Of a stretch of DNA of 64,000 bases, positions 16,658 to 38,622 are shown in pieces (within the stretch, counting starts at the first letter, position 1; each line of letters begins with the position of its first letter). The stretch is from positions 1-64,000 of IMG/VR virus record IMGVR_UViG_2898902220_000006; one strand, written 5' to 3'. A program made the translations under genes and the position numbers. The notes below the pieces were generated by a model that worked only from the letters and a program-made list of their open reading frames with translations, was not told the origin of the DNA and made no database searches. Source of the DNA: a virus (lineage: Duplodnaviria > Caudoviricetes).

Positions 16658-17228
16658 CATAAAGGACTTTCTTGTACGGCTTACCGACAACTACGAAAAA
16701 GACCCTGATAGCAACATGGGTAAAGTCATCCGGTTGTTCCAGGAGCAAATTCAGCAACTCGATGAGTCATATCATTTGATTGCAGATAATCGGGTTGAAA
16801 ATCAAGCTACAGGCGAATGGCTCGATACCATAGGCAAAGAAGTAGGACAACCACGCGGTAAGGCTTCCGATGCAGAATACCGAATGCTAATTAAGAGCAA
16901 AAGGGCAAAGAACCGTTCTCACGGTGAAATAAATACCATTATCCAGGTGCTTGCTGATTCTCTGCAAGTGCCTGTTTCTGATGTAAAGGTTGAGGAGCTA
17001 TTCAATAGCGATCTGTTAAAAGAGCCAGCAGCCTTTCTAGTAAAGATCAAAGGATATGAGCAACTAAACAAGACAACCCTGGACGCCTTTTCAGAACTTG
17101 CTGGCCCTGGAATACGAATGTACTTCCAACCGTTAAGCAACTTCACAGAGCTGTCAGGATGGCAGGAAGATATTACACACGTTGGCTTTAGTTGTCCTAT
17201 CCCGAATGAAGAACTTTACCCTTGTTAG
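16650..17228 (+). CDS. Baseplate wedge protein
   Basis: ATGEWLDTIGKEVGQPR...YRMLIK. Confidence 0.8.
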   Translation: MFNIKDFLVRLTDNYEKDPDSNMGKVIRLFQEQIQQLDESYHLIADNRVENQATGEWLDTIGKEVGQPRGKASDAEYRMLIKSKRAKNRSHGEINTIIQVLADSLQVPVSDVKVEELFNSDLLKEPAAFLVKIKGYEQLNKTTLDAFSELAGPGIRMYFQPLSNFTELSGWQEDITHVGFSCPIPNEELYPC

Positions 17229-17239
17229 GAGGAAATATC

Positions 17240-17710
17240 ATGATTGAATGTGGCGGTTGGGCTGGCGCGTACAACGTAACTGTCCGTAAAGGCGATGGTA
17301 CAGAAACAAAGCTGCACATAAAAAATATGATTACGGACGCTGGATTGAATTTTTTAAGAGACGGGCTATCAGGGAAACACAGCGATTTAAAAATTAAGTA
17401 TCTGGCGTTGGGAGATTCAGCCGATCCGGTGCAAAGGAATCAATGGAAGTTAGGCAATGAACGATTTAGAATTGCATTTGCTGCTCAGGAAGATGGCGGA
17501 ATTGGAGCATTGCGGTCGGTATGTGCAATCCCTGATGATGAAGCGCTATTTCATATTCGTGAATTGGGTATTTTCGCTGGTAAAGATGCTGACCAAAACC
17601 AGAATACGGGAATCATGGTGTCTCGCATTCTTTTTGATTTTGATAAATCGAGGGAATCAGTGCCGTTTTCGTTGCGTTTCGAGCGGATTGACACCATAGG
17701 GAGGTTATAG
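17240..17710 (+). CDS. Tail-fibre attachment / collar protein
   Basis: NMITDAG...YLALGD...IRELGIF...SRIL. Confidence 0.7.
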   Translation: MIECGGWAGAYNVTVRKGDGTETKLHIKNMITDAGLNFLRDGLSGKHSDLKIKYLALGDSADPVQRNQWKLGNERFRIAFAAQEDGGIGALRSVCAIPDDEALFHIRELGIFAGKDADQNQNTGIMVSRILFDFDKSRESVPFSLRFERIDTIGRL

Positions 17711-17711
17711 C

Positions 17712-17990
17712 ATGCCTTATAACAAAACAGTCTGGAAAAACGGTGCTGCTCCTGGTATTAGCGCTGGCAGATTAAATAACATGGAGGATGGGATCGAAGC
17801 AGCTCATGTTGTAATTGATTCCCTTAAAAGCACTGTCTCAAATCTAGAAACAAGAACAAAAACACTAGAAGATTCATTGCTAAACGACTTTAAAAACAAC
17901 ATTTTCTTTGTCAATTTTAAAGAGATACAAAAGGTCAAGGTTTCATCTGGATGGTATGACCAGACAAATAATAGGCTGTTAATTTTGTAA
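17712..17990 (+). CDS. Small tail-fibre-associated protein
   Basis: YNKTVWKN...LNNMEDGI motif. Confidence 0.7.
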   Translation: MPYNKTVWKNGAAPGISAGRLNNMEDGIEAAHVVIDSLKSTVSNLETRTKTLEDSLLNDFKNNIFFVNFKEIQKVKVSSGWYDQTNNRLLIL

Positions 17991-18015
17991 TGGATACAGA
18001 AAGTGGAGGGATATC

Positions 18016-20202
18016 ATGCCTAGTATTACATTTACATTTCAAAATACCGATGTGCAGGATACATATATCACAGAAGGTTCAACATCAAGCAATGGAGGAA
18101 GTTCTCTGCTGGCTATATCAAACAAAACGTCATATATAAGACGATCCTTGATAAAATTCGATATAAAAGCAATTCCCAAGAATGCGGTGATTGAGAGCGC
18201 AACACTACGATTAATACTGTCAAACTATCCAAGCGAAAATAGGAAGATAGGGGTTCACCTTATCACTCAGGATTGGAATAATAATACGAATTGGAATACA
18301 CAACCGACTTTTAACGATGTTCAAGAATTTCGCAACTTACAAAGTATGCAGAAGGTTGTTGATATTCCGGTTACATCAATTGTACAGGAGTGGGTGAATG
18401 GAACCGAGAATCATGGTTTCTTATTGTCCGATCAAACCCCTAACTCTACTAATTTATCAGTCATTAATTTTTATTCAGTGGATGACAGTTCCTTTTCGAA
18501 CCGTCCAACATTAACGATACAATACAAAAATCCAACATCGGGACAAGCATCCTATATGGGGCTTGTCAAAATGGGTACACTTAGAAACCAAAGAGGCATA
18601 AAGCCACGTCCATCCCGTCCTTGGAGTATCGATCAAGTCCCTACGGGCACGCCTGGTAAGGGTAATATATCAAGCTTCCTTACAGACCCCAACATAGAGA
18701 ATTGGACTATAGGAGATTCGGACGATTATGAGCCGGATAATAATTTATACTGGCATAAAATCAAAGAAGGAAACAAAGTAATTTTAATTTGTGATCGGGT
18801 AATCCTCTCGAATGTTAGTTGGGAAGACCTTAACAAGGGTGGTTTTGTTTCTGGGAAAACCGTTATGATTGATGGACAATACTATAAAATACGTTTACTA
18901 TCGGGTGGATCATCTTCACGATTCGAAAAATCGAATGCGGTAGGTGGAGCACCTCTCAATAATGAATGGGATCGTTTCATTTCAAACGAGGATGAAATAA
19001 ATGGAATACCTTCTATCATTTCTTCTGATTTTGATGAGTTTTTTACAACAACCGATTTAGAGAGTCCAAGTAATAAATTTTGGAATTGGGCTGGTATGTT
19101 CTCATTTTGTATGGAAAAAAGGCTCAGGAGTAATGATTGGTTAGGTGTCGAAAGAGGCTGGCGTTCAGTACGTCTATGGGAAGAAACACTATCAAGTGCT
19201 AGATATTCAAATGCAGGCTGGCGGCCTGTACTCGAAGTTTTAAATCAGCCACCAACCCTATCTTTAAAGACACCTTCTGATAATCAAACACTAACGGAAA
19301 ATGATGTTTTAAAAATCGAGGGGACGGTATCAGATAACGACAAAGACGATGTAGTCGTCACAAAATACCGTATCAACAACGGCACAACAAGGGCTATTGC
19401 TTCCGGTGTATCGGATGGCAGCAGTCCTATTTCTTTTGCCAAAACGTTACTATTCCACAACAAACGGCTCTACGATGGCACAACCGATATTATAGGCACA
19501 GACCTAGAAGAAAATATTGACCATATTCTAACCATTTGGGCAGAGGACGACAAAGGCGGAAAATCTACAGAGGTTACACGCAAGTTTCGTGTCGTTCACA
19601 ACCGACCACCTGTTATTAGTGGTCAGAATAAGGATTTAGGAATAATCGAGGCAGCCCCTTCAGAAACGTATAGCGTTACCGATCCAGAAGGCGACAGTTT
19701 CACCGTTGTTGAAAAGATAAATGGAACCGTAATCCGTTCGTTTCCAGGGGTAGCAGATAGAGAAGAAACGGTCACAATTACACCTGATATATGGCTAACA
19801 CTACAACCTGATGAAACACACACCCTTACGGTTACAGCTACAGACAAGCAAGGCATGATGTATACTCGATCCTACACGTTCAAAAGATTTGAAAGCAAAA
19901 TTGTGATTGACGGTCTTGCCGTACCATTCACCACAGACATTGCTGCCAAGCGTGTGTTGATTACACCAGATTGGGTTGTCCCTCTTGGAACGATCATCAA
20001 GGTAGAGACATGTAACAACGCTTTTGATGAATCCCCTACCTGGGAAGATTGCACATTAGTTGTGAAGCTTGGGCGTGGTTATCTGTTTACAAACGAAACA
20101 AAGACAGCAGCAGAATGGGGAATAGATATTCGCTTTCGCATCGAAAAAGGCGAGGCAGTAAGCCCAATTTCATTCAAAGGATTCGGGGGTGCATTTGATT
20201 GA
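18016..20202 (+). CDS. Multidomain tail fibre / receptor-binding protein (DNRLRE-like N-terminus, Ig-like C-terminal repeats)
   Basis: DTYI...RSLIKFD...NHGFLL...RPTLTIQY; LLSGG...NNEWDRFI; N(Q/R)PP Ig-like repeats. Confidence 0.75.
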   Translation: MPSITFTFQNTDVQDTYITEGSTSSNGGSSLLAISNKTSYIRRSLIKFDIKAIPKNAVIESATLRLILSNYPSENRKIGVHLITQDWNNNTNWNTQPTFNDVQEFRNLQSMQKVVDIPVTSIVQEWVNGTENHGFLLSDQTPNSTNLSVINFYSVDDSSFSNRPTLTIQYKNPTSGQASYMGLVKMGTLRNQRGIKPRPSRPWSIDQVPTGTPGKGNISSFLTDPNIENWTIGDSDDYEPDNNLYWHKIKEGNKVILICDRVILSNVSWEDLNKGGFVSGKTVMIDGQYYKIRLLSGGSSSRFEKSNAVGGAPLNNEWDRFISNEDEINGIPSIISSDFDEFFTTTDLESPSNKFWNWAGMFSFCMEKRLRSNDWLGVERGWRSVRLWEETLSSARYSNAGWRPVLEVLNQPPTLSLKTPSDNQTLTENDVLKIEGTVSDNDKDDVVVTKYRINNGTTRAIASGVSDGSSPISFAKTLLFHNKRLYDGTTDIIGTDLEENIDHILTIWAEDDKGGKSTEVTRKFRVVHNRPPVISGQNKDLGIIEAAPSETYSVTDPEGDSFTVVEKINGTVIRSFPGVADREETVTITPDIWLTLQPDETHTLTVTATDKQGMMYTRSYTFKRFESKIVIDGLAVPFTTDIAAKRVLITPDWVVPLGTIIKVETCNNAFDESPTWEDCTLVVKLGRGYLFTNETKTAAEWGIDIRFRIEKGEAVSPISFKGFGGAFD

Positions 20203-20375
20203 TTATTGGATTACAACATGCAAAGCCACTTTCAGAGATTCGCGAAGAAAAAGACATGAGTAATGTTACACCGGAGTTGCTTGCTGCTTATGAAGCTATA
20301 GCAAAGTTAGACGAAAAAATAGCCTTGTTGGAAAGAAAAATTCTATTACTTGAAGGAGAGAACAAACATGACTAA
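20199..20375 (+). CDS. Small coiled-coil tail-associated protein (58 aa, not in ORF track)
   Basis: TTG start overlapping fibre stop; LIIGLQHAKPLSEIREEK... Confidence 0.6.
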   Translation: MIIGLQHAKPLSEIREEKDMSNVTPELLAAYEAIAKLDEKIALLERKILLLEGENKHD

Positions 20376-20496
20376 ACAATATATGGTTCCTGTCTATGGC
20401 TTGCTGGTGAAGGCTGGACGTCGAGAAATTGAATCGATACCTGAGGAATATCAAATCCCTGTTGCCGAGTATTTAGCTTCACAAGTAGAAATGTAG
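20368..20496 (+). CDS. CD1375-family small phage protein (42 aa, not in ORF track)
   Basis: GAAGGAG RBS; MTKQYMVPVYGLLVKAGRREIESIPEEYQIPVAEYL. Confidence 0.75.
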   Translation: MTKQYMVPVYGLLVKAGRREIESIPEEYQIPVAEYLASQVEM

Positions 20497-20497
20497 A

Positions 20498-20528
20498 GCG
20501 TCTTTCTCATCTGAGAGGGGCGCTTTTT
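20498..20528 (+). terminator. Intrinsic terminator before lysis genes
   Basis: AGCGTCTTTCTCA-tc-TGAGAGGGGCGCT followed by T run. Confidence 0.55.
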
Positions 20529-20587
20529 AGATTCAAAAATAAAAGGGGGCTACGGCTCCCTATCTCTTAATTTGAAAGGGGTATGGT

Positions 20588-20983
20588 ATGGAAACTTTTT
20601 ATAAACTTCTGGTAGCAATCGGGGGTGGACTTATCTCCTTTTTGTACGGTGAATGGCACTACTTGCTTACCATTTTGATTGCGTTTGTTTTTTTTGATTA
20701 TCTTAGCGGAATGACTGCTGGATGGCTCGAAGGGGAATTAAAAAGCAGAATAGGAATGATTGGTATTGCCCGAAAGATTTTTATTTTCGGTGTGGTTGCG
20801 GCTGCTCATTTAATTGATACGGCACTAGGCAATCAAGATATCATTCGTAATGCATCAATCTTCTTTTATTTGGCTAACGAGCTGCTTTCCATTCTTGAAA
20901 ATGCTGGTAGGATCGGTGTTCCTGTACCAGACGTAATTAAACGGGCTGTAGAGGTTTTGAAAGATAAAGGAGAGGGTAAGTAA
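20588..20983 (+). CDS. Holin (toxin secretion/phage lysis family)
   Basis: FDYLSG...KSRIGMIGIARK...NELLSILENAGRIGVPVP. Confidence 0.93.
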   Translation: METFYKLLVAIGGGLISFLYGEWHYLLTILIAFVFFDYLSGMTAGWLEGELKSRIGMIGIARKIFIFGVVAAAHLIDTALGNQDIIRNASIFFYLANELLSILENAGRIGVPVPDVIKRAVEVLKDKGEGK

Positions 20984-21756
20984 TGCAAGCTAAAAATGAA
21001 ACCAACATCAAAGGGATTGACGTATCCCATCATAATAGCCTGATTGATTGGAAGCAGGTTGCCTCAGACGGCGTGAAATACGCTTTTATTAAAGCGACAG
21101 AAGGAACGGGATTTGTTGATAAAAAGTTACGTGAGAACGCCACACAAGCCCATGAAAACGGAATCAAGGTTAGTTATTATCACTTTGCCCATCCTGATAT
21201 GTCCCCACAGGCTCAGGCAAATCATTTTCTTACCACTATACAAGGGTTACCCCTTGATTTTCCAGTGGTGCTAGATATAGAAACAACGAAAGGATTACAA
21301 GCATCACAGATTACAACGTTTTGTTTAGCGTTTCTTACTCACATCAAGGCTCGCACAGATAAGACCCCTATCCTTTATACAGGAGCTTCTTTTGCTAAGA
21401 CTCACTTAGGTAAAGAGCTTGTTGGCTTCCCATTGTGGGTTGCTCATTATAACGTTGACCAGCCGATGAAGAATAACACATGGAACCGTTGGGCTGTATT
21501 TCAATACACGGACAGTGGGAAGGTACGCGGCATCAATGGAAACGTAGACATGAACTGGATGGAAAAAGAATTTTGGGATATACACATGAAGGAGGAAACA
21601 ACTGTGGATAAAATGTTAGCAAATGAGCTTATTTTGGTTTTGAAAACACAATGGAAAGTTAGTGACGCAATGGGAATGAAGGAGCAAGCGAAATACCTTG
21701 GTGAACTTGCCGATCGGGTACGTGTTGCTAGTGGACAGGAGCCACAGAATAAATAG
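20983..21756 (+). CDS. Endolysin, glycoside hydrolase family 25
   Basis: GIDVSHHN, FIKATEG, YHF, VLDIE, LWVAHY, FQYTDSG...VDMN. Confidence 0.95.
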   Translation: MQAKNETNIKGIDVSHHNSLIDWKQVASDGVKYAFIKATEGTGFVDKKLRENATQAHENGIKVSYYHFAHPDMSPQAQANHFLTTIQGLPLDFPVVLDIETTKGLQASQITTFCLAFLTHIKARTDKTPILYTGASFAKTHLGKELVGFPLWVAHYNVDQPMKNNTWNRWAVFQYTDSGKVRGINGNVDMNWMEKEFWDIHMKEETTVDKMLANELILVLKTQWKVSDAMGMKEQAKYLGELADRVRVASGQEPQNK

Positions 21757-21775
21757 TTAACGCTTTAAGGGAACA

Positions 21776-21812
21776 AGAAAACGTCCGAGGGAGATTCGGA
21801 CGTTTCTCTTTG
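21776..21812. terminator. Bidirectional terminator between lysin and convergent lipoprotein gene
   Basis: AAACGTCCGA...TCGGACGTTT with A and T tracts. Confidence 0.75.
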
Positions 21813-21824
21813 CATAATGATGCC

Positions 21825-22445
21825 TCAATCTAGATCAGTTATATCTTCAATAAGGTAATGATCCTTATCTTTGACAAGATTGAATTGTACCTTTACTATA
21901 ATTTGTTGTTTATTTTTGAAATTAGAGGAATCGTATCCAATACCTGTTATCAGAACGCTTGTATTTGTTTCACTTTTCTTTTGGAGGTCTACTTTTAGGT
22001 CTTCCAAAATCCCTTGTAAGCTTGTTGTGAATCGTTCTGTCTCAATGCACTCATAAGTGCCATCATCTTTCTTTTTAAAATAAAAAGCAAAGATTTCTTC
22101 TGCTTTAGTAGGAGTAAAATATTTTGTTAATGTTGAAACAATGACATCTTTCGAATTGCCATCAATGAACTGCTTTGATCTTGTTAACCATAAAAATTCG
22201 CTTGTCCATGTTTGCAATTTTTCAAACCAAATCCACTTAGGTATATCTCCTTTACTGGTAAGGACTTCATCACTCAGTACCTCAGGAGCAGATTTTTCTA
22301 CAAGAGATGCTATGAGAGTTATGTTTTCTTTTGTTAGTAAATCATTCCGTATACTACTTGTAGTTTCAACTTTACTTGGAGAACACGCTGAAATTGAAGT
22401 GGTAGCAATTATGGAAATCAGTAAGAAAAGAAAAACTTTTTTCAT
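21825..22445 (-). CDS. Lipoprotein of unknown function
   Basis: MKKVFLFLLISIIATTSISAC signal with lipobox Cys; RBS GGAGGG. Confidence 0.8.
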   Translation of the reverse strand: MKKVFLFLLISIIATTSISACSPSKVETTSSIRNDLLTKENITLIASLVEKSAPEVLSDEVLTSKGDIPKWIWFEKLQTWTSEFLWLTRSKQFIDGNSKDVIVSTLTKYFTPTKAEEIFAFYFKKKDDGTYECIETERFTTSLQGILEDLKVDLQKKSETNTSVLITGIGYDSSNFKNKQQIIVKVQFNLVKDKDHYLIEDITDLD

Positions 22446-22531
22446 CACCAAACCCTCCATTCTGTATTCAATTTTTTATTTTAAAAGCAAGAACCCCCTT
22501 ATTATAAAGGGGGCACAAGGCATTTGTCAAT

Positions 22532-23182
22532 TTATTCCAAAGGTATTCCTAATTCAGTACGTTGCTCAGGTGTCATTGCACGAATTTCTTCAAGGCTATA
22601 AAAAATGGAGTCTTCATTCGTTAGCTCTGGAGGTAGCATGTCTGTCTCAATACTATCTATATCGAATTCTTGTATCTTTGTAGTAAAGGTTTTAATCTTA
22701 GGGAAATATGGCAATGGATCAAAAGGTACGTTTCCAAAATCATATTTTGTACCATTTCTTGTTTCAAAGTGTAAGTGAACACCATCGGCGCCACCTGTTT
22801 CTCCCATTTCCCCGATCTGTTCTCCTTCAGAAACTTTCTCATCATCCGAAACCAAGGGTTCTTTATTTAGATGAGCATACCAAGTTTGCACATTTTTTTT
22901 ATCGACAGTATGGTTAATTACCACCAAATAACCATAACTACTCTTTTTACCTTTCTTGCTTTCATGGTATCCAGAAAAAGCAACTTTACCACCAAAAGCT
23001 GAAACTATAGAATCTCCAGCCTTCCCTGCTTTCTTAGCTCCAATATCTAGTCCCTTATGACCATTTCCGTACTTTTGTGTCACTCTAGTAGAGTCGGGAA
23101 CAGGCCATGTTGCGGCTAATGCTGTAGTGGATGAGGTTAGAATTGCTATTGCAGTCAGTAGTGCGAATCCTTTTTTCATCAT
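22532..23182 (-). CDS. Secreted M23-family metallopeptidase
   Basis: Sec signal ending ALA; HKGLDIG, YAHL, HLHFE zinc motifs. Confidence 0.9.
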   Translation of the reverse strand: MMKKGFALLTAIAILTSSTTALAATWPVPDSTRVTQKYGNGHKGLDIGAKKAGKAGDSIVSAFGGKVAFSGYHESKKGKKSSYGYLVVINHTVDKKNVQTWYAHLNKEPLVSDDEKVSEGEQIGEMGETGGADGVHLHFETRNGTKYDFGNVPFDPLPYFPKIKTFTTKIQEFDIDSIETDMLPPELTNEDSIFYSLEEIRAMTPEQRTELGIPLE

Positions 23183-23272
23183 TTATCACCTTTCTACTTT
23201 TCGATATAGAATTGCTCAAACAATTCTTTTGAAAATTAATTAAATATTTACATTGTATCCTTATGAAAATGA

Positions 23273-23293
23273 TGTAAATATTTACAATTGTAA
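23273..23293. promoter_or_regulatory. Overlapping palindromes upstream of M23 gene (TGTAAATATTTACA; TTACAATTGTAA)
   Basis: Perfect 14-bp and 12-bp palindromes; TAAATATTTACA also at 23241-23252. Confidence 0.4.
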
Positions 23294-23554
23294 GGTTAGT
23301 TCATCGCTTTTTTTCTAGCAAAATCTTTTTAGCTTTATCTTTAAGATCAAGTCGGCGTTCAGACCATTCTTGTTTTAATTCTTGTTTTCGTAATATTTCC
23401 TCTGGCTCTATCAATTTCAATTTCTTGATAAGAGTCACCCCATACCAACATAATGGACATTCTAATTGTCTTAAAGGAATAGCTGAAACACGGCTGTTTT
23501 CTTTTCAAAAGGTTTATTCCGTACAGCTTATTCTCATATCCGACAACTACTTTT

Positions 23555-23731
23555 CTAATAAAAAAAATTTTTTCCCTTTAAACGCAAGGGCATGATAAAC
23601 TTGAATGGAGCATTTTTTAAATGCTTGGAGTGTCGGGGTGTTCCTAAGCTTTCGTCGGGCCTATGGGAACATCCCGTTTTTATTTCCCTCTTAACTTCCT
23701 TCTCTGGACATTTATTGTCCCATACTAGCAT
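23555..23731 (-). CDS. 58-aa hypothetical protein (not in ORF track)
   Basis: Strong RBS AGAAAGGAG; MLVWDNKCPEKEVKREIKTG...KNFFY. Confidence 0.45.
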   Translation of the reverse strand: MLVWDNKCPEKEVKREIKTGCSHRPDESLGTPRHSKHLKNAPFKFIMPLRLKGKNFFY

Positions 23732-23850
23732 GTGCCAACTCCTTTCTATGAGTATTCCTTATTTGCTACCCTCCCTTCTCTGGCAACCACAAAAATGATA
23801 AAAATAACGTATTTTTCTATATTTTTCATGTGTTGCCATTTGTTGACTTA

Positions 23851-23880
23851 ATTATATATCAGTAGGAACAAATTTTCCTA
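23851..23880 (-). promoter_or_regulatory. Leftward promoter (-10 TATAAT) with LexA/DinR-like box GAAC-AAAT-TTTC
   Basis: TATAAT on minus at 23851-23856; TAGGAA-N6-TTCCTA inverted repeat at 23863-23880; one mismatch to GAAC-N4-GTTC. Confidence 0.4.
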
Positions 23881-24118
23881 ATAGAAATTTGTGTTAATTA
23901 ATTAAGTCTTTTTGTTTGATTCTCTTATTTTCTCTTAAAAATTAAATCTGGTAATTTTAGTGAAACTATTATCGTGATAAATAATAAGATGCATCGTGTC
24001 CAGAAGGACAAGTCTGGAATCATGTTAATCGAATAAAAGGATAAAAATAGTAGAACTACTGTTAATAAAGTGTTTTTTATAGTGATCATAAAGTAGATTC
24101 TCCTCCTAATTCATTCCA

Positions 24119-24144
24119 AAAAAAAAGAGAGGATGCCCTCTCTA
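24119..24144 (-). terminator. Terminator after peptide gene
   Basis: AGAGAGGGCATCCTCTCTTTTTTTT on minus strand. Confidence 0.75.
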
Positions 24145-24145
24145 A

Positions 24146-24268
24146 TTACCAACCTTCACCTACGCTTTTTGAAGAAGCTGTTGTTTCCAATTCCTTAACC
24201 TCAAAATTCGTTTCTGTAAAGCCGTACAAGGAAAGAATCGCTAGTAAGAAAATTATTCCTCGCTTCAT
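24146..24268 (-). CDS. 40-aa secreted propeptide, RRNPP-type signalling peptide candidate (not in ORF track)
   Basis: RBS AGAAAGGGACGGTG; MKRGIIFLLAILSLYGFTETNFEVKELETTASSKSVGEGW; own terminator. Confidence 0.8.
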   Translation of the reverse strand: MKRGIIFLLAILSLYGFTETNFEVKELETTASSKSVGEGW

Positions 24269-25550
24269 GTAAATCACCGTCCCTTTCTGTCATGACATCG
24301 ACAAATTTGTCTTTTTGTTCTGGTGTTGCAAGATAATCATATTCATAATACTTCAAAATAATGCTACGGACTCTTTCTACATTTTTAAACATGATAGCTA
24401 GGTCTAGAGCTTCAAAGATGTATTCAAACCCTTTATTGCTATCCTCAATTATAAAATAATATGAGGCTAATGCTTGATAAAGTTTTAGCTTATGTCTTTT
24501 GGTAGGAATGCTTGTTTGACAAGCAATTTTTTTGATTTGTTCTTCAAAGGTACAGATCAGTTTTTGAATGCTTTCTATATCTTTATTCTGTAAATATGTT
24601 TCAACAGCAACTGGCAATAACATAAATATTTCAACATCAGTAGCTAAACTAGCAAAGTTGTCAATGTATTCGACATGGCCCATTTCTATTGAAAATAATA
24701 ATTCGTTTAATTTTGAAATTTGCTGATAGCCTTCATAGTTAGCATATTCTTTAGTTATAAGCAATGCTTTATTATAATCTTTCATTTCTCGATAACTAAA
24801 GGATTCATATAGTAAGGCTTCCGCTATGAATTTGTTATCGTTTAATGTGATAGCCAATTCCTTCAATTCTGCTGCATACTTTAATAATTCCCCCCATTTT
24901 TCTACGGCATTATAAAAAGTTAATATTTTATAATACGCTTCTAGTTTATATTCTTCTGGAAGTATAGGAAAGTATTCTAAAAATTGGTAAAGAGTTTGAT
25001 ACCCAGAGACAGTAAGGTCTATATCTCTAGCTATTACAAATCGTTTAAAATAAGAAATGGCTGCTCGTTCATTACGAGTTGTACTGTTCGCGGTCACGAT
25101 ATCATACAAGGGCAGACTGTAGTTTCTTTGATCGGATGAAAAAATATGCTCTGCCATCTTAAAGGTGTTATCAAGAAGCCTTCTTCTATCTGTATCATCT
25201 TTGATCAATTCTATGATCCTCTTTGTAATGTCATATCGTTCTACGTTGATACAACTTGTGAAAAAATCAGCAGTTTTAACAGGTGACAATTTTCCTGATT
25301 CGTTAAAGCATTCCCCAATAAAATACTCATAGAAGGTGTCTTTCGGTAATCCTAAAGCTTCTGTAATAGCGTCTAATTGAGGTAATGTCAATCCCCGTTT
25401 GTTGTTCATTATTTGACTCAAAGTAACTGAATCAATTCCGGTGGCGAGAATCAAATCTTTTTGTTTCCATTCTTTTTTATCAAGTGCATCTTGCAAATGC
25501 TGACGTAGTTCTATTTGTGCCTCTTGATAACTGTATTCCAAAGCTTGCAT
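24201..25550 (-). CDS. XRE-HTH plus TPR-like regulator (RRNPP-like receptor)
   Basis: N-terminal HTH (KQKDLILATGIDSVTLSQIMNNKR); helical TPR-like C-terminus (ALLYESFSY...YNKAL; LASYY...KGFEYIFEALDLA). Confidence 0.8.
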   Translation of the reverse strand: MQALEYSYQEAQIELRQHLQDALDKKEWKQKDLILATGIDSVTLSQIMNNKRGLTLPQLDAITEALGLPKDTFYEYFIGECFNESGKLSPVKTADFFTSCINVERYDITKRIIELIKDDTDRRRLLDNTFKMAEHIFSSDQRNYSLPLYDIVTANSTTRNERAAISYFKRFVIARDIDLTVSGYQTLYQFLEYFPILPEEYKLEAYYKILTFYNAVEKWGELLKYAAELKELAITLNDNKFIAEALLYESFSYREMKDYNKALLITKEYANYEGYQQISKLNELLFSIEMGHVEYIDNFASLATDVEIFMLLPVAVETYLQNKDIESIQKLICTFEEQIKKIACQTSIPTKRHKLKLYQALASYYFIIEDSNKGFEYIFEALDLAIMFKNVERVRSIILKYYEYDYLATPEQKDKFVDVMTERDGDLHEARNNFLTSDSFLVRLYRNEF

Positions 25551-25730
25551 TTACCTATCCCCCTTATTGGTCTTGGAAATATAAGGAAAAACGTAACTTC
25601 CCATATGATACTGTAATTAGATAATATTGTAAACTATAATGAAAGGAAATAAATGATTTTTTTAGAAATATTAAGTACCTATAGGTTCTCAAATATTGTA
25701 GGAGAGAGTAGAAAATCTACTCATCAATGC

Positions 25731-25973
25731 CTATTGTTCCCGTTCCCATTCGTAGAGGTCTTCCATGCGGAAGTTTGGCATGTACGCCTGAATGATGCAA
25801 GTAATGGTATACATAGCTTCTGGAGACATCGGTTTTGTATTGGTAGCATAATGCGATATCATTCTGGCTGAATAACCTGTTCGCCTCGCTAACTCAGCTT
25901 GTTTCATACCAATAAAGTTCAGGACGGGCTGTAATAGGCATTTCCCACGTAGGTAAGATACCATTACATTCAT
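25731..25973 (-). CDS. Small XRE-family HTH regulator
   Basis: GKCLL...MKQAELARRTGYSARMISHY...EDLYEW. Confidence 0.85.
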   Translation of the reverse strand: MNVMVSYLRGKCLLQPVLNFIGMKQAELARRTGYSARMISHYATNTKPMSPEAMYTITCIIQAYMPNFRMEDLYEWEREQ

Positions 25974-26026
25974 TCCCTATAGGTTAATATTTGATTTATC
26001 AGAGGCAAAATTATTTCCTAAAACCA

Positions 26027-26056
26027 GAACATACATTCCCGTTTTTATGTTATAAT
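26027..26056 (+). promoter_or_regulatory. Extended -10 promoter (TGtTATAAT) with LexA/DinR-like box GAAC-ATAC-ATTC over the -35 region
   Basis: TG at 26048, TATAAT at 26051-26056; box has one mismatch to GAAC-N4-GTTC. Confidence 0.55.
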
Positions 26057-26119
26057 AGTTTTAACAACATTTAACAACTATGAAGAGAATTTAAAAGTAA
26101 TAGGATGGGGGATTGATCA

Positions 26120-26299
26120 ATGGTACGTGATCGCGTAATTGTAGATATAGACAAATTAGCAAATGTAATAAAGATCAATTTACGAAATGTAATAGATGTT
26201 ACACCTAATATTATTCGTAATCGCGTTCAACACGAAGAAAGGCAATTAACTTTTTCCATTCCTTCTCGGTCAACTCCCGACCATCCACAACTACTTTGA
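26120..26299 (+). CDS. 59-aa ORF convergent with and overlapping the repressor 3' end (not in ORF track)
   Basis: RBS AGGATGGGGG; MVRDRVIVDIDKLANVIKINLRNV... Confidence 0.45.
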   Translation: MVRDRVIVDIDKLANVIKINLRNVIDVTPNIIRNRVQHEERQLTFSIPSRSTPDHPQLL

Positions 26300-26642
26300 A
26301 CTGTTTTCTTAATTCTTCATCGGATAGATCAATATTTTTTAGAAACTCTTTTTCGTTTTTATACGAATCAGGGTTTTCTTTTTTTTGCAGTTTTTCATCA
26401 TCAGAAGGAGCGTAGTCATATAAGTTAACATCAGTTTTACATAATAAATAATCTGTAGTGACATTAAACAACTCAGCTAGTTTTGCTACAACTTCACTAG
26501 GAACATTGGTAATTTTTTCACGTTCATAATTTGAGATATTAGCTCTATTCATATTGAGAAGTTTTGCTAGGTCATCTTGTGAAAATCCTCTTTTTTTTCT
26601 TAACTCGGCAAGTCTTTTTCCGAATGTCATACTGGAATTCAT
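26211..26642 (-). CDS. Prophage A immunity repressor, XRE family
   Basis: FGKRLAELRKKRGFSQDDLA...ISNYERE...FNVTTDYLL; no S24 peptidase domain. Confidence 0.9.
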   Translation of the reverse strand: MNSSMTFGKRLAELRKKRGFSQDDLAKLLNMNRANISNYEREKITNVPSEVVAKLAELFNVTTDYLLCKTDVNLYDYAPSDDEKLQKKENPDSYKNEKEFLKNIDLSDEELRKQFKVVVDGRELTEKEWKKLIAFLRVERDYE

Positions 26643-26669
26643 CTCCTATATTACGATGAGTAATTTTTA

Positions 26670-27035
26670 ATTTCGAAATTCACACTTGCGCAATTTTGAA
26701 TTACATGTTATCTTAATCTACGAAAGGAGGTGAACCCATGAAAGGTTCAACAAAGAAGCCTGTTAGAAAACCTCGATTACGTTTTAAAGAATTGAGAGAA
26801 TCTAAAGGCACTCAGTTAAAGGTTGCGCAAGATATGGGAGTTACTGAGACAACTGTGAGATATTTAGAGAATGGTTACATTAATCCTAGTGTAACTACGT
26901 TATTTGGTTTTGCTCATTACTTTGGAACAGATGTTTATGATCTTTGGCCTGACTTAGCATTTCAAGGTGTAGAAGTTTAAGAAAGATAATTGTTCTGTTG
27001 AGATTAGTATATTACGTAATTCATAATTACGCAAC
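26670..27035. promoter_or_regulatory. Operator-like palindromes ATTNCGNAAT
   Basis: ATTTCGAAAT at 26670, CTTGCGCAAT at 26685, ATTACGTAAT at 27011, ATTACGCAAC at 27026; weaker copies at 26130 and 26179. Confidence 0.55.
26738..26980 (+). CDS. Cro-like XRE regulator
   Basis: Divergent from repressor; TQLKVAQDMGVTETTVRYLENG. Confidence 0.88.
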   Translation: MKGSTKKPVRKPRLRFKELRESKGTQLKVAQDMGVTETTVRYLENGYINPSVTTLFGFAHYFGTDVYDLWPDLAFQGVEV

Positions 27036-27174
27036 TGGCATTTTACAATTTGTGCAAATGTTTCTTTGTTATGCCCATAGAGTAATTAATAATTACTTTC
27101 GTAGAGGAATTACAAATTACTATTGCCATCCAATCATCAATTCATACTTAAAAATAAAAGCGAGGAGATTTCAA

Positions 27175-27888
27175 ATGAAACAACTACAGGTGATTAATCA
27201 AAATGGACAACTATTAGCGGACAGCCGAGAAGTGGCTGAAATGGTAGGGAAACGGCACGATCATTTGATTAGAGATATTGAGGGGTATGTAGCTGTTTTG
27301 GATCAAAACCCAAATTTGGGGACTGACCATTTTTTCTTTGAAAGTAGCTACACATCTGGAACAGGGAAACGATACAAATGCTATCTACTAACCCGCAAAG
27401 GTTGCGACATGGTAGCTAATAAAATGACTGGCGAAAAAGGTGTTCTATTTACTGCCGAGTATGTTACTCGATTCGAAGAAATGGAAAAACAGCTAAGTGG
27501 CAACAACTTTACTGGATTGAGTAAGGAGTTACAAGCAATCTTCTTTCTGGATAAAAAAACGCAGGAGATTGAAAGTCGTGTAACACATTTAGAACAAACG
27601 TCAACGATTGATTACGGGCAACAACTAGAGATTAGTAATTCATGCAGAAGTCGAGTTATGCACATTACTAGCGGTCGCGAGAGCAATGCATATAAAGATA
27701 TAAACCTACGTTCTAAAGTTTTCAAAGCTATATGGAGAGATTACAAGAATTATTTCAAGGTTGATTCTTACCGCAATACTTCTCCATTGGATTATCAAAA
27801 GGCCCGTGAATATATTCAGACATGGAAACCGGATGGGAAGCTGTTACGCGAGATTGACGAAGCTAACAACCAATTAAGTTTTGTATAG
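27175..27888 (+). CDS. Rha-family regulator / antirepressor with ORF6C-like C-terminus
   Basis: ATG 27175 after GAGGAG; DSREVAEMVGKRHDHLIRDI, YLLTRKGCDMVANKMTGEKG. Confidence 0.9.
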   Translation: MKQLQVINQNGQLLADSREVAEMVGKRHDHLIRDIEGYVAVLDQNPNLGTDHFFFESSYTSGTGKRYKCYLLTRKGCDMVANKMTGEKGVLFTAEYVTRFEEMEKQLSGNNFTGLSKELQAIFFLDKKTQEIESRVTHLEQTSTIDYGQQLEISNSCRSRVMHITSGRESNAYKDINLRSKVFKAIWRDYKNYFKVDSYRNTSPLDYQKAREYIQTWKPDGKLLREIDEANNQLSFV

Positions 27889-27995
27889 GAAGGAGAAAAG
27901 TAAATTGACACTTTTAAAATTGGCTGAGATTTGGGGAAAGAAGCCTTTGCAACAGGCTATCATTCTACGAAACGCACAACGAGAGGAGAAAAACC

Positions 27996-29513
27996 GTGGA
28001 AATTAAGTTTATATCTATTAAACTGCACAATTTTAAAAGTCACCGTGATCTTGTCGTAGAGTTTGGCGACCTTACCAAGATCACAGGTGACAACGCAAGA
28101 GGGAAATCTAGTATTTTAGAATCCATCTCATGGACATTGTACGGTACAGATACGTTAGGTAGCAAGACCGATCCAACACCTACCAATTATGAATACGACC
28201 ATATATACACAGAATTTTTACTATCTGTTGATAACAAGCAGATTTTACTTGGTCGCTCGATTGAAAAAGGCAAGAGCAAACTGTATGTAAATGAAGTCCC
28301 GACAAAATCCACAGAGTTTGACGAACTGGTCAAGTCTCTATTTGATAAAGATTTATTCTTAGCTCTATTTAATCCGGTCTACTTCTCTTCTCTACATTGG
28401 GAGAAACAGCGTAGTATGTTGCTTCAATACGTTACACCACCACTAAACAAAGAAGTATTTGCACAACTACCAGAAACACAAGCAAAAAAGCTGTCTGAGC
28501 AATTGAAAAAACACACATTATCAGATTTAGAAAAGATTCATCGGGACAATAAAAACAAGATGGACAAGGCTCTTATAGCGGAAGCAAGTCGTACTAGAAC
28601 TTTGCAAAATCAACTCAAACATGTATCTCAACTTGATATCAATGTGGAAGAAACGAAATCAGAAATTGAAAAGCTCACAAATCAGATCAAAGAGATAGAA
28701 GCTACCACGTTTTCAGCAAGTGAAAACAATCAACGATACAGTTCTTTACATGCTCAAATCCAGTCCCTACAAGAACAAGTTAGTTCCTCAGCTTCAAAGT
28801 GGCCCTCATTACGTGACGAGGCTATTGAGGACACATGCAGAACATGCAAGCGGCTATTAGATGCGGATTCAATTGAAGTAGTAAAGACAGACAAAGCAGA
28901 GCGAGAAGAACAGTACAAAGTTAATCACAAGTTGTTGGTGACAAAAAGAAACGAACTTCAATCTCAACTTGGGCATTTTGAATTTATTGATGTGTCGGAA
29001 CAACTCGAAAAAATTCGGGAGCTAGAAAAAAAACAAAAATCATTACTTGCTAACATTGCGGTACAAGATCAAAGAGAACTGCTACTAGACCAGATTAAAC
29101 AGGCTGAGAGTGCGGAAATTGAAACTCGTGAAAGTCGAAATGAATCCATCCTAGTGTTGGATGCAATCAAGGCCTATGAAGCTAAAGCCGCAGAGTTACA
29201 AGCAATGAAAGTGCAAGACCTATTTACTACCCTATCCGTTCGCTTGTTTAAACAGAACAAAGGTGACGGTGAATATAAACCAGATTTTGAAATTGAAATG
29301 GACGATAAACCATATCGAAAGCTTTCCCTCTCTGAAACCATCCGAGCAGGTTTGGAATTGCGAGACGTTTTGAGTAAACAGTCAGGAATTATTGCCCCTT
29401 GCTTTGTGGATAATTCAGAATCTATCACTCGCTTTACTAGACCTTTAGGACAGTTAATTACATCCAGAGTGGTAGCAGATCAAGAATTGATAATCGAGAC
29501 GGAGGGCAAATAA
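27996..29513 (+). CDS. SMC/Rad50-like AAA ATPase
   Basis: Walker A GDNARGKSS, coiled coil with CRTC hook, LSLSE signature, FVDNSES. Confidence 0.9.
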   Translation: MEIKFISIKLHNFKSHRDLVVEFGDLTKITGDNARGKSSILESISWTLYGTDTLGSKTDPTPTNYEYDHIYTEFLLSVDNKQILLGRSIEKGKSKLYVNEVPTKSTEFDELVKSLFDKDLFLALFNPVYFSSLHWEKQRSMLLQYVTPPLNKEVFAQLPETQAKKLSEQLKKHTLSDLEKIHRDNKNKMDKALIAEASRTRTLQNQLKHVSQLDINVEETKSEIEKLTNQIKEIEATTFSASENNQRYSSLHAQIQSLQEQVSSSASKWPSLRDEAIEDTCRTCKRLLDADSIEVVKTDKAEREEQYKVNHKLLVTKRNELQSQLGHFEFIDVSEQLEKIRELEKKQKSLLANIAVQDQRELLLDQIKQAESAEIETRESRNESILVLDAIKAYEAKAAELQAMKVQDLFTTLSVRLFKQNKGDGEYKPDFEIEMDDKPYRKLSLSETIRAGLELRDVLSKQSGIIAPCFVDNSESITRFTRPLGQLITSRVVADQELIIETEGK

Positions 29514-29514
29514 A

Positions 29515-30423
29515 TTGACTACTCAACTACAAGAAGCAAATACAAACGTAGTTATCGGCAATTTCACGCAAAGGGAACTAGATACACTCAAAGCGACTGT
29601 TGCGAAAGGAACAACTAATGAACAATTCTCCTTGTTCGTTCAAACGTGCGTAAGTTCTGGATTAAACCCTTTTCTTAATCAAATATATTGCATCGTTTAT
29701 AGAGGGCGTGACGGGGCAGTAATGAGTATGCAAATTGCTGTTGAGGGTATTGTTTCCCTAGCTAAAAGAAACCCACATTACAAGGGCTTTATAGCTTCTG
29801 AGGTTAAAGAACAAGATGAGTTTGAAATTAACGTAGCGGCAGGAGAAGTAACACACAAAATCACAGCCATGCAACGTGGTAAAACGATCGGGGCCTATTG
29901 CGTAGCTTACCGTGAGGGGGCGCCGAACGTTGCGGTTGTAATAACCATAGACCAAATCGAACATTTAATTAAAGGTCGCAATAAAGATATGTGGCGCGAT
30001 TACTTTGACGACATGATCGTAAAGCATGCAATGAAACGAGCGTTCAAACGTCAATTCGGGATCGAAATTGCTGAAACTGAAAATGTTCCTTCTGAAACCT
30101 CTATCGAGAACATGCCCGAATATGAACCTACACAACGCGAAGTTGTGGTTGAGGTGAACGGTGAAGAAGTTAGAAATAAGAGTGAAAATGTACCTTCCTC
30201 TAATGCCGAAGATGAAGAAAGTCATATTAAGCGGATCAAGAAGGAATTAAAACATAAGTTTGAAGTGTTAGGTATTAGCGGAAAAGAAGAAATAAACGCA
30301 TATATGCAACAGCATTGCCCAATCAAAGGAAATGCCCCTACTCTAGCAGAGCTAACGGGCCTACTAAAAATCATGGATAAGCACATTGCTGAAATGAACA
30401 GCAACGATGATGAACTGGAATAG
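29515..30423 (+). CDS. recT: RecT/Bet-family single-strand annealing protein
   Basis: GLNPFLNQIY...IAVEG...GAYC...MIVKHAMKRAFK. Confidence 0.88.
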   Translation: MTTQLQEANTNVVIGNFTQRELDTLKATVAKGTTNEQFSLFVQTCVSSGLNPFLNQIYCIVYRGRDGAVMSMQIAVEGIVSLAKRNPHYKGFIASEVKEQDEFEINVAAGEVTHKITAMQRGKTIGAYCVAYREGAPNVAVVITIDQIEHLIKGRNKDMWRDYFDDMIVKHAMKRAFKRQFGIEIAETENVPSETSIENMPEYEPTQREVVVEVNGEEVRNKSENVPSSNAEDEESHIKRIKKELKHKFEVLGISGKEEINAYMQQHCPIKGNAPTLAELTGLLKIMDKHIAEMNSNDDELE

Positions 30424-30432
30424 GAGAAATCA

Positions 30433-31188
30433 ATGAAAGTCAAAATCCTTGCATCCGGTTCAAATGGAAACTGCATAGCGATTCAATACGGTGATAAATG
30501 CATTCTTATTGATGCCGGAGTTGCCAAAACAAAGATAGAAAAGGCTCTACTAGAACAGGGCATCTACCCTACTAATGTACAAGCCATATTCATTACACAC
30601 GCACATGGGGATCATGTAAAAGGTTTGCCATTTGCGAACAAGTACAAAATTCCAGTGTTCGCCACTTATGGCGAATGGAGAAGTATATCAAAAGTGGATA
30701 TGGAGCTACAAAAACCAATAGAAACGATCTATGGGGCATACCAAGTAATTAATATACATGGGGCGAGTGTTTGCCCCTTCCCTACTCATCACGATGCATA
30801 CGAGCCTGTAGGGTTCTCAATCATACATGACCAGATGAAAGTTAGTGTGTGCTTGGATACTGGCAAGGTGGATAAGGAAATGTTAGAAGCTATGAGAGAT
30901 TCAGACATTTACATTATTGAGTCGAATCATGAACCAGAAATGGTTGAAGTAGGTCAATATCCTAGCAACGTAAAAGAACGTATCTTGTCAGACAATGGAC
31001 ATTTAAGCAACGAGCAAACAGCGAGGGCATTACAGCGATTAGTACAGGGGAATGGTGAACATATCTATCTGGTGCATTTATCTAGTAAAAATAATTTGCC
31101 GTCTCTAGCAGAGCTAACAGTAAAACAATTTTTGAAGCAAAAGGGCCTAGTAATAGGAGAACAATATAAAGTAGAGGTGATTTCATGA
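30433..31188 (+). CDS. Metallo-beta-lactamase-fold nuclease (YycJ-like)
   Basis: [28 protein letters not shown]. Confidence 0.92.
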
Positions 31189-31601
31189 ATAAGGTATTTC
31201 TTATTGGACGACTTACTAAAGACCCTGAGTTGAGATATACGTCCAATGGTGTTGCAGTAGCTACATTTACCCTAGCCATTGATCGGAATTTTACTGGTAC
31301 TGATGGGCGGAAAGAAGCGGATTTCATTGGGATTGTGGCTTGGAAGCAACTAGCCGATCTATGCGCTAACTATCTGGCTAAAGGTAGACAATGCGCCATT
31401 GACGGACGAATACAGACTAGAAGCTATGACAACAAGGAAGGCAAGAGAGTTTATGTCACGGAGATTGTAGCAGAGCATGTGCAGTTTTTAGGGGGAAGCA
31501 AAGGCGAACAAGATAGACAGGGAACCGCAGCGCAACCAAGCGATCCATTTTATAGCCCAGGTCAGAAAGTTCAAATAAAAGATGAAGATTTACCGTTCTA
31601 A
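31185..31601 (+). CDS. ssb: Single-stranded DNA-binding protein
   Basis: [19 protein letters not shown]...DEDLPF. Confidence 0.96.
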
Positions 31602-31626
31602 TAAAAATTATGGGAGATGTTTATAT

Positions 31627-32103
31627 ATGAGAATTCCGATAGATTGTAGAGCATTACAAAGTGAAATCAATAGACTTTCTGACAAGGTAAAAACTCTTAC
31701 ACAGGAAAAAGAATTGCTACAAGGTGAGATTAACAACCTAACTCTTTCTAAAAAATTAAAATTGCCACGCGAGGTTGCAGAAGCGATTGAGCAGGAGTTC
31801 GGGAAAGCATCAAATGATAAAAAACAATGGGGATTTTTCAACATCGTTGTTTGCCGACCAATAAGCTTAAATCACAATGCACGGATCATAAAAAGTTATT
31901 TTCATCCTGATAAATATATCGACCTTGCAACTGCTCTAGTAGCAGGCTATACGATCGAAGAAACCAAGGAAGAACGGATAAAACGTGGGATACAAGCAAT
32001 TTATAACCAATGGACTAGAGAACCATCTATCAATGATGAAGAAGACGGAAAGGACTTAGGTCAACGAGTCTATACTCTGGTAAAAAGGGAATTGAATCTA
32101 TAA
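31627..32103 (+). CDS. Phage hypothetical protein (DUF1642-like core)
   Basis: KLPREVAEAIE...LATALVAGYTIE. Confidence 0.7.
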   Translation: MRIPIDCRALQSEINRLSDKVKTLTQEKELLQGEINNLTLSKKLKLPREVAEAIEQEFGKASNDKKQWGFFNIVVCRPISLNHNARIIKSYFHPDKYIDLATALVAGYTIEETKEERIKRGIQAIYNQWTREPSINDEEDGKDLGQRVYTLVKRELNL

Positions 32104-36485: not shown

Positions 36486-37541
36486 GTGTATGAGATAATA
36501 ACGGATGAGCTTATAATTGCTCATACAAACGAAACGGAATACAAAACCTTTATCGGAAATAAAAAGAATGAAGCATTACAGTCTAGAATGATTGTCATGC
36601 CAGTTCCTTACAATCTGCGGGTAGCAGAAGAAGAAAAGATTTATGATAAATTAATTAAGCAATCTGATTTAGGCCATGTTCATATTGCTCCACATGCGCT
36701 ATATACGGCGGCCATTTTTTCTATTTTAACCCGTTTAAAAGAGTCCAAGAAACAAGGCGCTGATCTATTAAAGAAATTACGTTTGTATAATGGTGAATCG
36801 GTTGAAGGCTTCAAAGGCTCTGACATCGAGGAATTACGTAATGAGCATGTGGATGAGGGAATGTCTGGAATTGATCCTCGTTATGTCATAAACCGGATTT
36901 CCAGTGCACTCATTCGTCGTGATACTGAGTCTATTAATGCCTTGGATATTTTGCGGGCATTAAAAGAAGGGCTCGATCAGCATGCTTCCATTAGCAAGGA
37001 ACAGCGAGAGCGTTACTTAAATTTCATCTCTATCGCACGTAAAGAGTACGATGAGATTGCGAAAAAAGAAGTTCAGAAGGCTTTTGTGTACAGCTATGAG
37101 GAATCAGCTAAAACCATGATGGATAATTATCTGGATAATGTTGAGGCGTATTGCAACTCTAACCGCTTACGTGATCCAGTAACAGGTGAAGAATTGGAAC
37201 CAGATGAACGTCTCATGCGGTCTATTGAAGAGCAGATTGGTATTTCCGAAAATGCCAAACGTGCATTCCGTGAAGAGATTCTTATTCGAATATCAGCTTA
37301 TGCGCGTAAAGGTAAACGTTTTGACTACAACACGCATGATCGTCTGCGGGAAGCGATTGAGAAAAAATTATTTGCAGATTTAAAAGATGTGGTTAAAATA
37401 ACAACCTCCACGAAAACACCAGATGAGCATCAATTGAAGAAAGTGAATGAAGTGACACGTCGTTTGGTTGAAGAACACGGATATACGCCAATTTCAGCAA
37501 ATGAACTGCTGCGTTATGTGGGTAGTTTGCTGAATCGATAG
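36486..37541 (+). pseudogene. prkA: 3' half of PrkA/YeaG-family ATPase/Ser kinase, split by prophage A
   Basis: DELIIAHTNETEY...NEALQSRMIVMPVPYNL...GMSGIDPRYV...VGSLLNR; N-terminal Walker A half absent. Confidence 0.92.
36487..36527. other. Candidate att junction of prophage A within prkA
   Basis: TGTATGAG/CTCATACA 8-bp inverted repeat centred near 36507, inner ATGAGC-N8-GCTCAT; PrkA similarity begins at GAT GAG (D-E-L-I). Confidence 0.6.
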
Positions 37542-38614: not shown

Positions 38615-38622
38615 GGAACCGT
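38564..38622. other. Candidate att junction of prophage B plus adjacent hairpin
   Basis: YhbH similarity ends at CAGTATAAC (38570-38578); ACGGTTCC/GGAACCGT hairpin at 38598-38622 spans the recombinase stop. Confidence 0.6.

Follow-up and report, generated by a model that had tools for sequence, protein, structure and literature searches.

In a Brevibacillus laterosporus prophage, in the interval that separates the lysis genes from the CI/Cro switch, a gene for a 449-amino-acid (aa) regulator overlaps a 40-codon open reading frame (ORF) whose product ends in SVGEGW. Both lie in IMG/VR virus record IMGVR_UViG_2898902220_000006, an 84.9-kb provirus whose first 64 kb form the stretch of DNA analyzed here (the window). 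We think it probable that this cassette is a peptide quorum-sensing module of the Alo family (RRNPP type), that it is carried by the prophage as an accessory element, and that its receptor acts on the promoter adjacent to it. The original prediction for this DNA had proposed an RRNPP-type receptor-propeptide pair beside a lysogeny module, and this proposal is supported by fold, adjacency, and covariation. The features found include those of RRNPP systems in general, namely a tetratricopeptide repeat (TPR) fold, an adjacent gene for a Sec-type propeptide, and a peptide type that covaries with the C-terminal part of the receptor, binding between the two being predicted only. They also include those of Alo systems: homology to AloR, a helix-turn-helix (HTH) domain with TPR-like domains, a 40-aa propeptide with a hydrophobic N-terminus, found in all homologues, and a Paenibacillaceae host.

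Receptor, propeptide, and their covariation

The receptor gene (24201-25550, minus strand) encodes an AloR-like transcription factor with an HTH domain and a TPR fold, as judged from Pfam, an AlphaFold2 model, fold matches, BLASTP, and Table S2 of Voichek et al. (2020). A Cro/C1-type HTH occupies residues 18-71 (Pfam HTH_26 and HTH_3), and a promoter-like site with 10 of 12 matches to consensus, TTTACA-17-TATCAT, precedes the gene (25605-25633; a consensus match only). Scans of Pfam, PHROGs, and NCBIfam returned the HTH alone and no Pfam TPR match, as is also the case for most AloR proteins (Voichek et al., 2020; PMC7425212). The TPR assignment comes from the AlphaFold2 model, built with 18 homologues (mean predicted local distance difference test score 86), which is all-helical and forms a TPR-like superhelix. 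When this model was used as a query in a structural search independent of Foldseek, the top match was the NprR-NprX complex (4gpk; Z 18.1, root-mean-square deviation [rmsd] 6.5 Å over 286 residues), and further matches were the Rap protein of phi105 (Z 16.1), RapI (Z 15.1), AimR of SPbeta (Z 14.9, rmsd 11.4 Å), and PlcR (Z 12.5). Foldseek against the PDB gave generic TPR proteins, the phi3T Rap protein among them. On the strength of the model, we take the receptor to be an RRNPP-compatible TPR-type regulator.

Sequence comparison places the receptor more narrowly. Searches of the PDB, AimR chains included, with the single sequence (phmmer) and with a family profile gave HTH matches only at E ≤ 10 and no match to solved RRNPP receptors, in keeping with the view of the original prediction that the protein is not AimR itself; NprR, AimR, and PlcR are matched by fold only. 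AloR is detectably related: BLASTP aligns the receptor to the AloR13-like receptor of plasmid pBRLA33 (L014, 3060-4493) at 21.7% identity (E 5.7e-23, 91% query coverage). In the survey of Voichek et al. (2020), AloR homologues were defined by a BLAST E-value of at most 1e-5 followed by a profile search, a definition within which the window receptor falls. The chromosome of B. laterosporus LMG 15441 encodes a homologue with 61% identity (P0005; 766743-768116), and that survey lists the same gene, as BRLA_00812 (457 aa) at identical coordinates, among its AloR-like proteins (Table S2; PMC7425212), together with further B. laterosporus entries of 447-449 aa. The receptor family has therefore already been catalogued as Alo, and the suggestion that it might be a distinct, undescribed family does not hold. 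A HMMER scan returned 170 representative clusters at E ≤ 1e-3. B. laterosporus and B. halotolerans account for all close homologues of the gene; after these, other Brevibacillus species supply the nearest sequences, with Paenibacillus regulators of 463-467 aa ranking behind them.

The propeptide gene (24146-24268, minus strand; 40 codons plus stop) begins at an ATG, an alternative GTG start giving 24146-24277, and overlaps the 3' end of the receptor gene by 68 nt. Its ribosome-binding site (RBS), a purine-rich GGGA...GGTGA, lies 5 nt upstream of the ATG. The predicted product has two lysine or arginine residues among its first five, a hydrophobic core (11-residue hydropathy 2.9, residues 4-14), and a polar tail, and the gene is followed by an intrinsic terminator (24126-24143, minus strand; stem 24143-24126, then T9) that is conserved in related loci. 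The 449-aa protein and the 40-aa ORF, with its RBS, signal-like N-terminus, polar tail, SVGEGW end, and terminator, are thus all present as originally described. The propeptide has no family match in Pfam, PHROGs, or NCBIfam. The propeptide RBS (24269-24290, and equivalent sites in the related loci) falls inside conserved receptor codons, in most homologues those of the ..ARGN.. region, which would couple the receptor sequence to the translation signal of the peptide.

The loci compared were 14 close ones, with receptors 58-87% identical to that of the window, and more distant ones with receptors at 33% (L005 and L026), 31% (L027), and 24% identity (gp60 of Brevibacillus phage Emery). An ORF of 38-46 aa stands at or just after the receptor 3' end in every homologous locus examined (14 close and three distant). 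The propeptide architecture, from the two basic residues to the polar tail, recurs in all close loci and in both distant relatives scored (L005 and Emery), and across all loci the predicted peptides end in G-x-G-W (GEGW, GDGW, GIGW, or GTGW). Because every homologous receptor examined is accompanied by an in-frame ORF of this architecture ending in G-x-G-W, we regard the small ORF as beyond chance, and the receptor and propeptide as a genuine pair. In the close family, GEGW is invariant and is preceded by the dipeptide SV, TY, IY, SF, or GY, giving five peptide types. The distant propeptides end in DPGDGW (L005) and EGTGW (L027), while Emery gp61 contains a six-residue HGGIGW unit twice, once internally and once at the C-terminus; in these three loci, the propeptide ORF does not overlap the receptor gene. 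The mature signal had been proposed to be SVGEGW or KSVGEGW. The hexapeptide is plausibly the mature form and is favored over the heptapeptide, because a variable dipeptide precedes the invariant tail and because the unit repeated in Emery has six residues.

Peptide type follows receptor sequence. Identity over residues 136-449 never falls below 77% between receptors that share a peptide type (mean 88%) and never exceeds 71% between receptors of different types (mean 63%), so that the five peptide types track receptor divergence; the stretch that diverges most is residues 226-350. The window receptor is 98-99% identical over residues 1-135 to the receptors of loci L004 and L008, whose peptides end in TYGEGW and SFGEGW, and just 42-45% identical to them over residues 301-449. 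The receptor of L006, which also has SVGEGW, shows the reverse, with 73% identity at the N-terminus and 96% over residues 301-449, a value that no other receptor shares. These reversed identities indicate that the C-terminal half is inherited along with the peptide gene. By this comparison, the window receptor is a mosaic whose C-terminal half has been kept with the peptide gene and whose DNA-binding end has been exchanged, a structure that points to the swapping of specificity modules.

A candidate target downstream of the peptide gene

Just downstream of the peptide gene lies an operator-like inverted repeat, ACAAATTT-N9-AAATTTGT (23868-23892, with no strand assigned), a candidate receptor-binding box that is conserved in 14 of 14 close loci. 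It is the sole perfect match to this pattern in the window, where looser matches occur at chance level, and the 64-kb search found no copy near cI/cro or near the receptor's own promoter. The box adjoins an extended -10 element, TGATATATAAT (23851-23861, minus strand), of which TATATAAT is identical in 13 of the 14 loci, the remaining one (L020) having GATATAAT. It occupies the position of a -35 element, as expected for the site of an activator. Together, the box and the extended -10 promoter are the likely direct target of the receptor, judging from their conservation and from the box being unique in the window.

The promoter is followed by a conserved unit of about 375 nt (23477-23850, minus strand) that is the probable output of the receptor. 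A transcript from this promoter would start at about 23844, and the unit contains a hairpin and T-run at about 23560. Its mean column identity across the 14 loci is 83%, higher than the conservation of the receptor gene, and in one complete genome the promoter element and unit occur as a single copy, beside the only close receptor. The unit may be a small ORF or an RNA, either a leader RNA or an sRNA. The first option is suggested by a 58-codon ORF in the window (23555-23731) that is 58-64 codons long across loci, follows a good RBS, has indels that preserve the frame, and is uninterrupted in 11 of the 14 loci. The pattern of substitution in this ORF is not that of a constrained protein (differences by codon position 372:427:503; 250 synonymous and 810 non-synonymous), the copy in L023 is broken by an 8-nt deletion while the remainder of the unit is still conserved, and the 58-aa product has no family match in Pfam, PHROGs, or NCBIfam. 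As for an RNA, RNAalifold predicted invariant hairpins and no covariation among these very similar sequences (covariation term -0.36; compensatory change at 4 of 64 pairs), and an Rfam search of positions 21500-27000 found no family for the unit and one sub-threshold match, to rli48, which was rejected (E 0.75).

The cargo behind the unit varies by locus: the window has an M23 peptidase, L006 a C92 amidase, and the other loci proteins of unknown kind. Many of these cargo genes apparently encode secreted products, going by signal-like N-termini read from the ORFs. The window gene for an apparently secreted M23 peptidase of 216 aa (22532-23182, minus strand) matches Pfam Peptidase_M23 (E 2e-21) and PHROG peptidase and endolysin families. 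Between the unit and this gene lies a 45-aa ORF (23301-23438, minus strand) with a 71%-identical copy in L006 and no family match. A perfect 14-bp palindrome, TGTAAATATTTACA, with a degenerate copy 20 bp away (23239-23286), also precedes the M23 gene and may be an operator for another regulator. A terminator-like site (22514-22493, minus strand) separates the M23 gene from that of a predicted 211-aa lipoprotein (21825-22460, minus strand), the last gene before the convergent lysis cassette and one with no family match. On the other side of the target, between the peptide terminator and the conserved promoter, is a hydrophobic 54-aa ORF (23925-24089, minus strand) with an AGGAGG RBS, an insertion specific to the window, with no homologue in the alignment of 13 related loci and no family match in Pfam or PHROGs.

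These elements suggest a mechanism. The signal-like N-terminus indicates that the 40-aa propeptide would be exported via Sec; the motif pattern and the Emery repeat suggest that extracellular cleavage would then leave a C-terminal fragment, most likely SVGEGW. This peptide would be re-imported and bind the TPR groove of the receptor, as the fold similarity and the covariation of receptor and peptide imply. The receptor HTH, given the conservation of the box and its uniqueness in the window, would act at the box and its extended -10 promoter, located some 250 bp past the peptide terminator, and this promoter would drive the unit and the secreted cargo, here the M23 peptidase. In Alo13, AloR activates the gene immediately downstream, and nanomolar peptide switches that gene off (PMC7425212). 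On the model of Alo13 and arbitrium, the promoter would probably be activated by the receptor without its peptide and turned off by the peptide when lysogens are dense, although we propose this Alo13-like polarity with modest confidence.

Prophage setting and relation to known systems

The lysis cassette consists of a holin (20588-20983, plus strand) and a GH25 endolysin (20983-21756, plus strand). On the other side of the quorum-sensing module is a CI-type repressor of 143 aa (26211-26642, minus strand; HTH_19 and HTH_3, E 1e-15; repressor families phrog_8 and phrog_3), whose only Pfam match is an HTH, with no S24 peptidase domain, and divergent from it is a Cro-like regulator of 80 aa (26738-26980, plus strand; HTH_3, E 2e-10; PHROG regulator families). 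The repressor and the receptor start are 661 bp apart in the same orientation, close to the 650 bp originally estimated, and the small XRE gene noted upstream of the receptor is likewise there (25731-25973, minus strand; 80 aa). Its HTH_3 match is sub-threshold (E 8e-4, 19.9 bits versus a cut-off of 23), and copies 89% and 74% identical stand upstream of the L011 and L008 receptors, making it a companion in some loci. From the repressor, the order on the minus strand is thus XRE gene, receptor, propeptide ORF, terminator, 54-aa ORF, promoter, conserved unit, 45-aa ORF, M23 peptidase, terminator-like site, and lipoprotein. A 59-codon ORF (26120-26299, plus strand), antisense to the 3' end of the repressor gene, is conserved at 80% in L009 and 67% in L003. 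The prophage extends to about 36.4 kb, where it meets a PrkA gene lacking the first part of the protein (the AAA_PrkA match begins at profile position 271 of 358), the C-terminal fragment lying at 36486-37541, which indicates that the prophage is inserted in prkA. Beyond it are a DUF444/YhbH gene and another prophage, which encodes a large serine integrase (38607-40181, minus strand) and AgrB (41429-41941). Positions 17000-32000 of the window gave no megablast match among 50,697 phage records.

Among known systems, the cassette most resembles Alo (AloR-AloP), which also has a receptor of about 450 aa with an HTH and divergent TPRs, a gene for a 32-50-aa propeptide with a hydrophobic N-terminus at or just after the receptor 3' end, several paralogues per genome, and a regulated unit immediately downstream. 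It differs from Alo13 in that its receptor is only about 22% identical to the AloR13-like protein, its peptides end in G-x-G-W rather than SHGRGG, and its output is the 375-nt unit with secreted hydrolases rather than a spo0E-like gene; its close family is also found in prophages and prophage remnants, beside a lysis cassette. NprR-NprX of the Bacillus cereus group, the best structural match, likewise pairs an HTH-TPR regulator with an adjacent propeptide and controls an adjacent gene for a secreted protease, as the window cassette stands beside a secreted-peptidase gene. However, NprR-NprX is chromosomal and has no sequence-level match to the window receptor, and NprX matures from an internal heptapeptide and not from the C-terminus (PMC10075063).

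Two further Brevibacillus systems bear comparison. Cluster 8 of RRNPP_detector (subfam_08; Bernard et al., 2023; PMC10075063) comprises Brevibacillus HTH-TPR receptors with Sec-type propeptides, found on chromosomes, plasmids, and phages and with a small HTH gene upstream, but its peptides end in ..DPGY. Membership in this cluster, for which the threshold is at least 30% identity over at least 80% of both receptors, was rejected: the window receptor aligns only partially, at 18% identity (E 0.026), to the AIG28938-type receptor on pBRLA33 (L014, 1394-2692). The gp60-gp61 pair of phage Emery (KC595516) is homologous (receptor identity 24%, E 1e-24, 86% coverage), has a propeptide ending in GIGW, and lies near XRE switch genes of a sequenced phage; it differs in its two HGGIGW copies and the lack of receptor overlap, and the two genes are annotated 'DNA binding protein' and 'hypothetical protein'. 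Besides this pair (3450-4933 of L013), Emery has an AgrB-family gene, gp55, followed by a 38-aa ORF (1754-2396), so that the phage appears to carry two peptide-signaling systems, whose annotations in both cases go no further than DNA-binding or hypothetical protein.

Prophage-borne RRNPP systems, members of the AloR family included, are already known from large screens (Bernard et al., preprint). The receptor family was not found in the portion of the supplementary tables of Bernard et al. that was searched, and our literature search, which covered part of the RRNPP_detector supplements, found no paper on the peptides, covariation, or target unit of the G-x-G-W clade. On present comparisons, we place this clade within the known Alo family, as a new and well-delimited member.

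Alternative roles and significance

Several observations weigh against reading the cassette as an Alo-type module that acts on the adjacent promoter. First, TPR fold matches are generic for helical repeats, and unrelated TPR proteins score in the same range, so the receptor fold is compatible with RRNPP proteins and is not assigned to any single family. Second, conservation of the left arm of the inverted repeat is poor in some loci, and the box may therefore not be a dimer operator. Third, the conserved unit also occurs in two viral contigs that have no close receptor (L023, 4826-5115; L025, 1794-2071), 5' of genes for secreted proteins, which implies that it can work under other regulators or alone. 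Fourth, co-segregation of receptor and peptide is in part what physical linkage would produce, given the overlap of the peptide gene with the receptor 3' end; despite this linkage, the pattern looks like that of pherotype-diversified systems.

The same genes could instead serve phage decisions as arbitrium (AimR-AimP-AimX) does, with the pair measuring phage or lysogen density to set lysis-lysogeny or induction and the conserved unit acting as aimX, although we consider this unlikely. The layout is suggestive: as in arbitrium, the system is phage-borne, its receptor, propeptide, and terminator are followed by a single small regulated unit, the predicted signal is a hexapeptide, and the pherotypes are diversified. 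Voichek et al. drew the same parallel in layout for Alo13 (PMC7425212). The cassette sits on a temperate phage, between holin/endolysin and cI/cro, at a short distance from a CI-type repressor of the same orientation that has no S24 peptidase domain, and the order cro, cI, receptor, peptide, unit, cargo, endolysin/holin recurs in prophage contig L003 and partly in remnant L009, with L004 retaining the part from receptor to lysis genes. Set against these likenesses, the receptor has no sequence relation to AimR and only a weak fold match, the G-x-G-W motif is, to our knowledge, unlike AimP motifs, and no copy of the box lies near cI/cro. Moreover, the genes behind the unit encode variable secreted proteins rather than lysogeny functions, and the cassette, with the same promoter and unit, persists outside functional phages in loci that have no cI/cro: remnants with endolysin fragments (L006 and L019), a 414-kb plasmid (L017), and a tyrosine-integrase island (L015). 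Retention of the cassette where there is no functional phage is more easily explained by a trait that benefits the lysogen than by a lysis-lysogeny switch. A more specific proposal, that temperate phages of Brevibacillus have recruited an Alo-type, non-AimR system for the arbitrium role, SVGEGW setting lysogeny or induction through the unit as an aimX analogue, seems if anything more doubtful. If it were true, phage 'arbitrium' would have arisen by convergence in at least two receptor families, and the five G-x-G-W pherotypes would be phage-specific private channels.

Another possible role is in sporulation, the cassette tuning host sporulation, or the excision of the prkA-interrupting prophage, by lysogen density. 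The insertion in prkA and the position of the related locus L009, also beside a PrkA gene, would fit such a role, as would the control of a spo0E-like gene by Alo13 (PMC7425212) and the hijacking of sporulation by phage quorum-sensing systems proposed by Bernard et al. In IMG/VR contig L023 (1786-3696), a related Brevibacillus-type system, with a receptor of the cluster 8 type and a 45-aa propeptide ending in DDPGY, is followed by a 66-aa Spo0E-like ORF, which is the sporulation-linked layout of Bernard et al. In the window, however, the genes downstream of the receptor include no homologue of Spo0E, Rap, or AbrB, the 58-aa and 45-aa ORFs there have no family match, and no recombinase gene lies near the cassette, which makes this role improbable. 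Lastly, that the small ORF is incidental and the receptor an ordinary XRE-type regulator, as the shortness of the ORF, its overlap with the receptor gene, and its lack of a family match might suggest, deserves very little credence, since its frame, start context, signal-like N-terminus, and G-x-G-W end are kept across receptors down to 24-33% identity, including the non-overlapping arrangements (L005, Emery, and L027), and since peptide type covaries with the receptor.

With an Alo-type module acting on its adjacent promoter as the favored reading, and the family already catalogued, what is gained is a well-annotated member and a set of hypotheses rather than a new kind of system. The locus raises the questions of whether prophage Alo-type systems govern phage decisions or lysogen traits, such as the secreted M23 peptidase, and of what the conserved unit is. 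Phage-borne peptide signaling has been shown experimentally mainly for arbitrium and for Rap-Phr in Bacillus; the cassette described here offers a clean Brevibacillus example, with five natural peptide variants, covariation between receptor and peptide, a mosaic receptor, and a single candidate target promoter.

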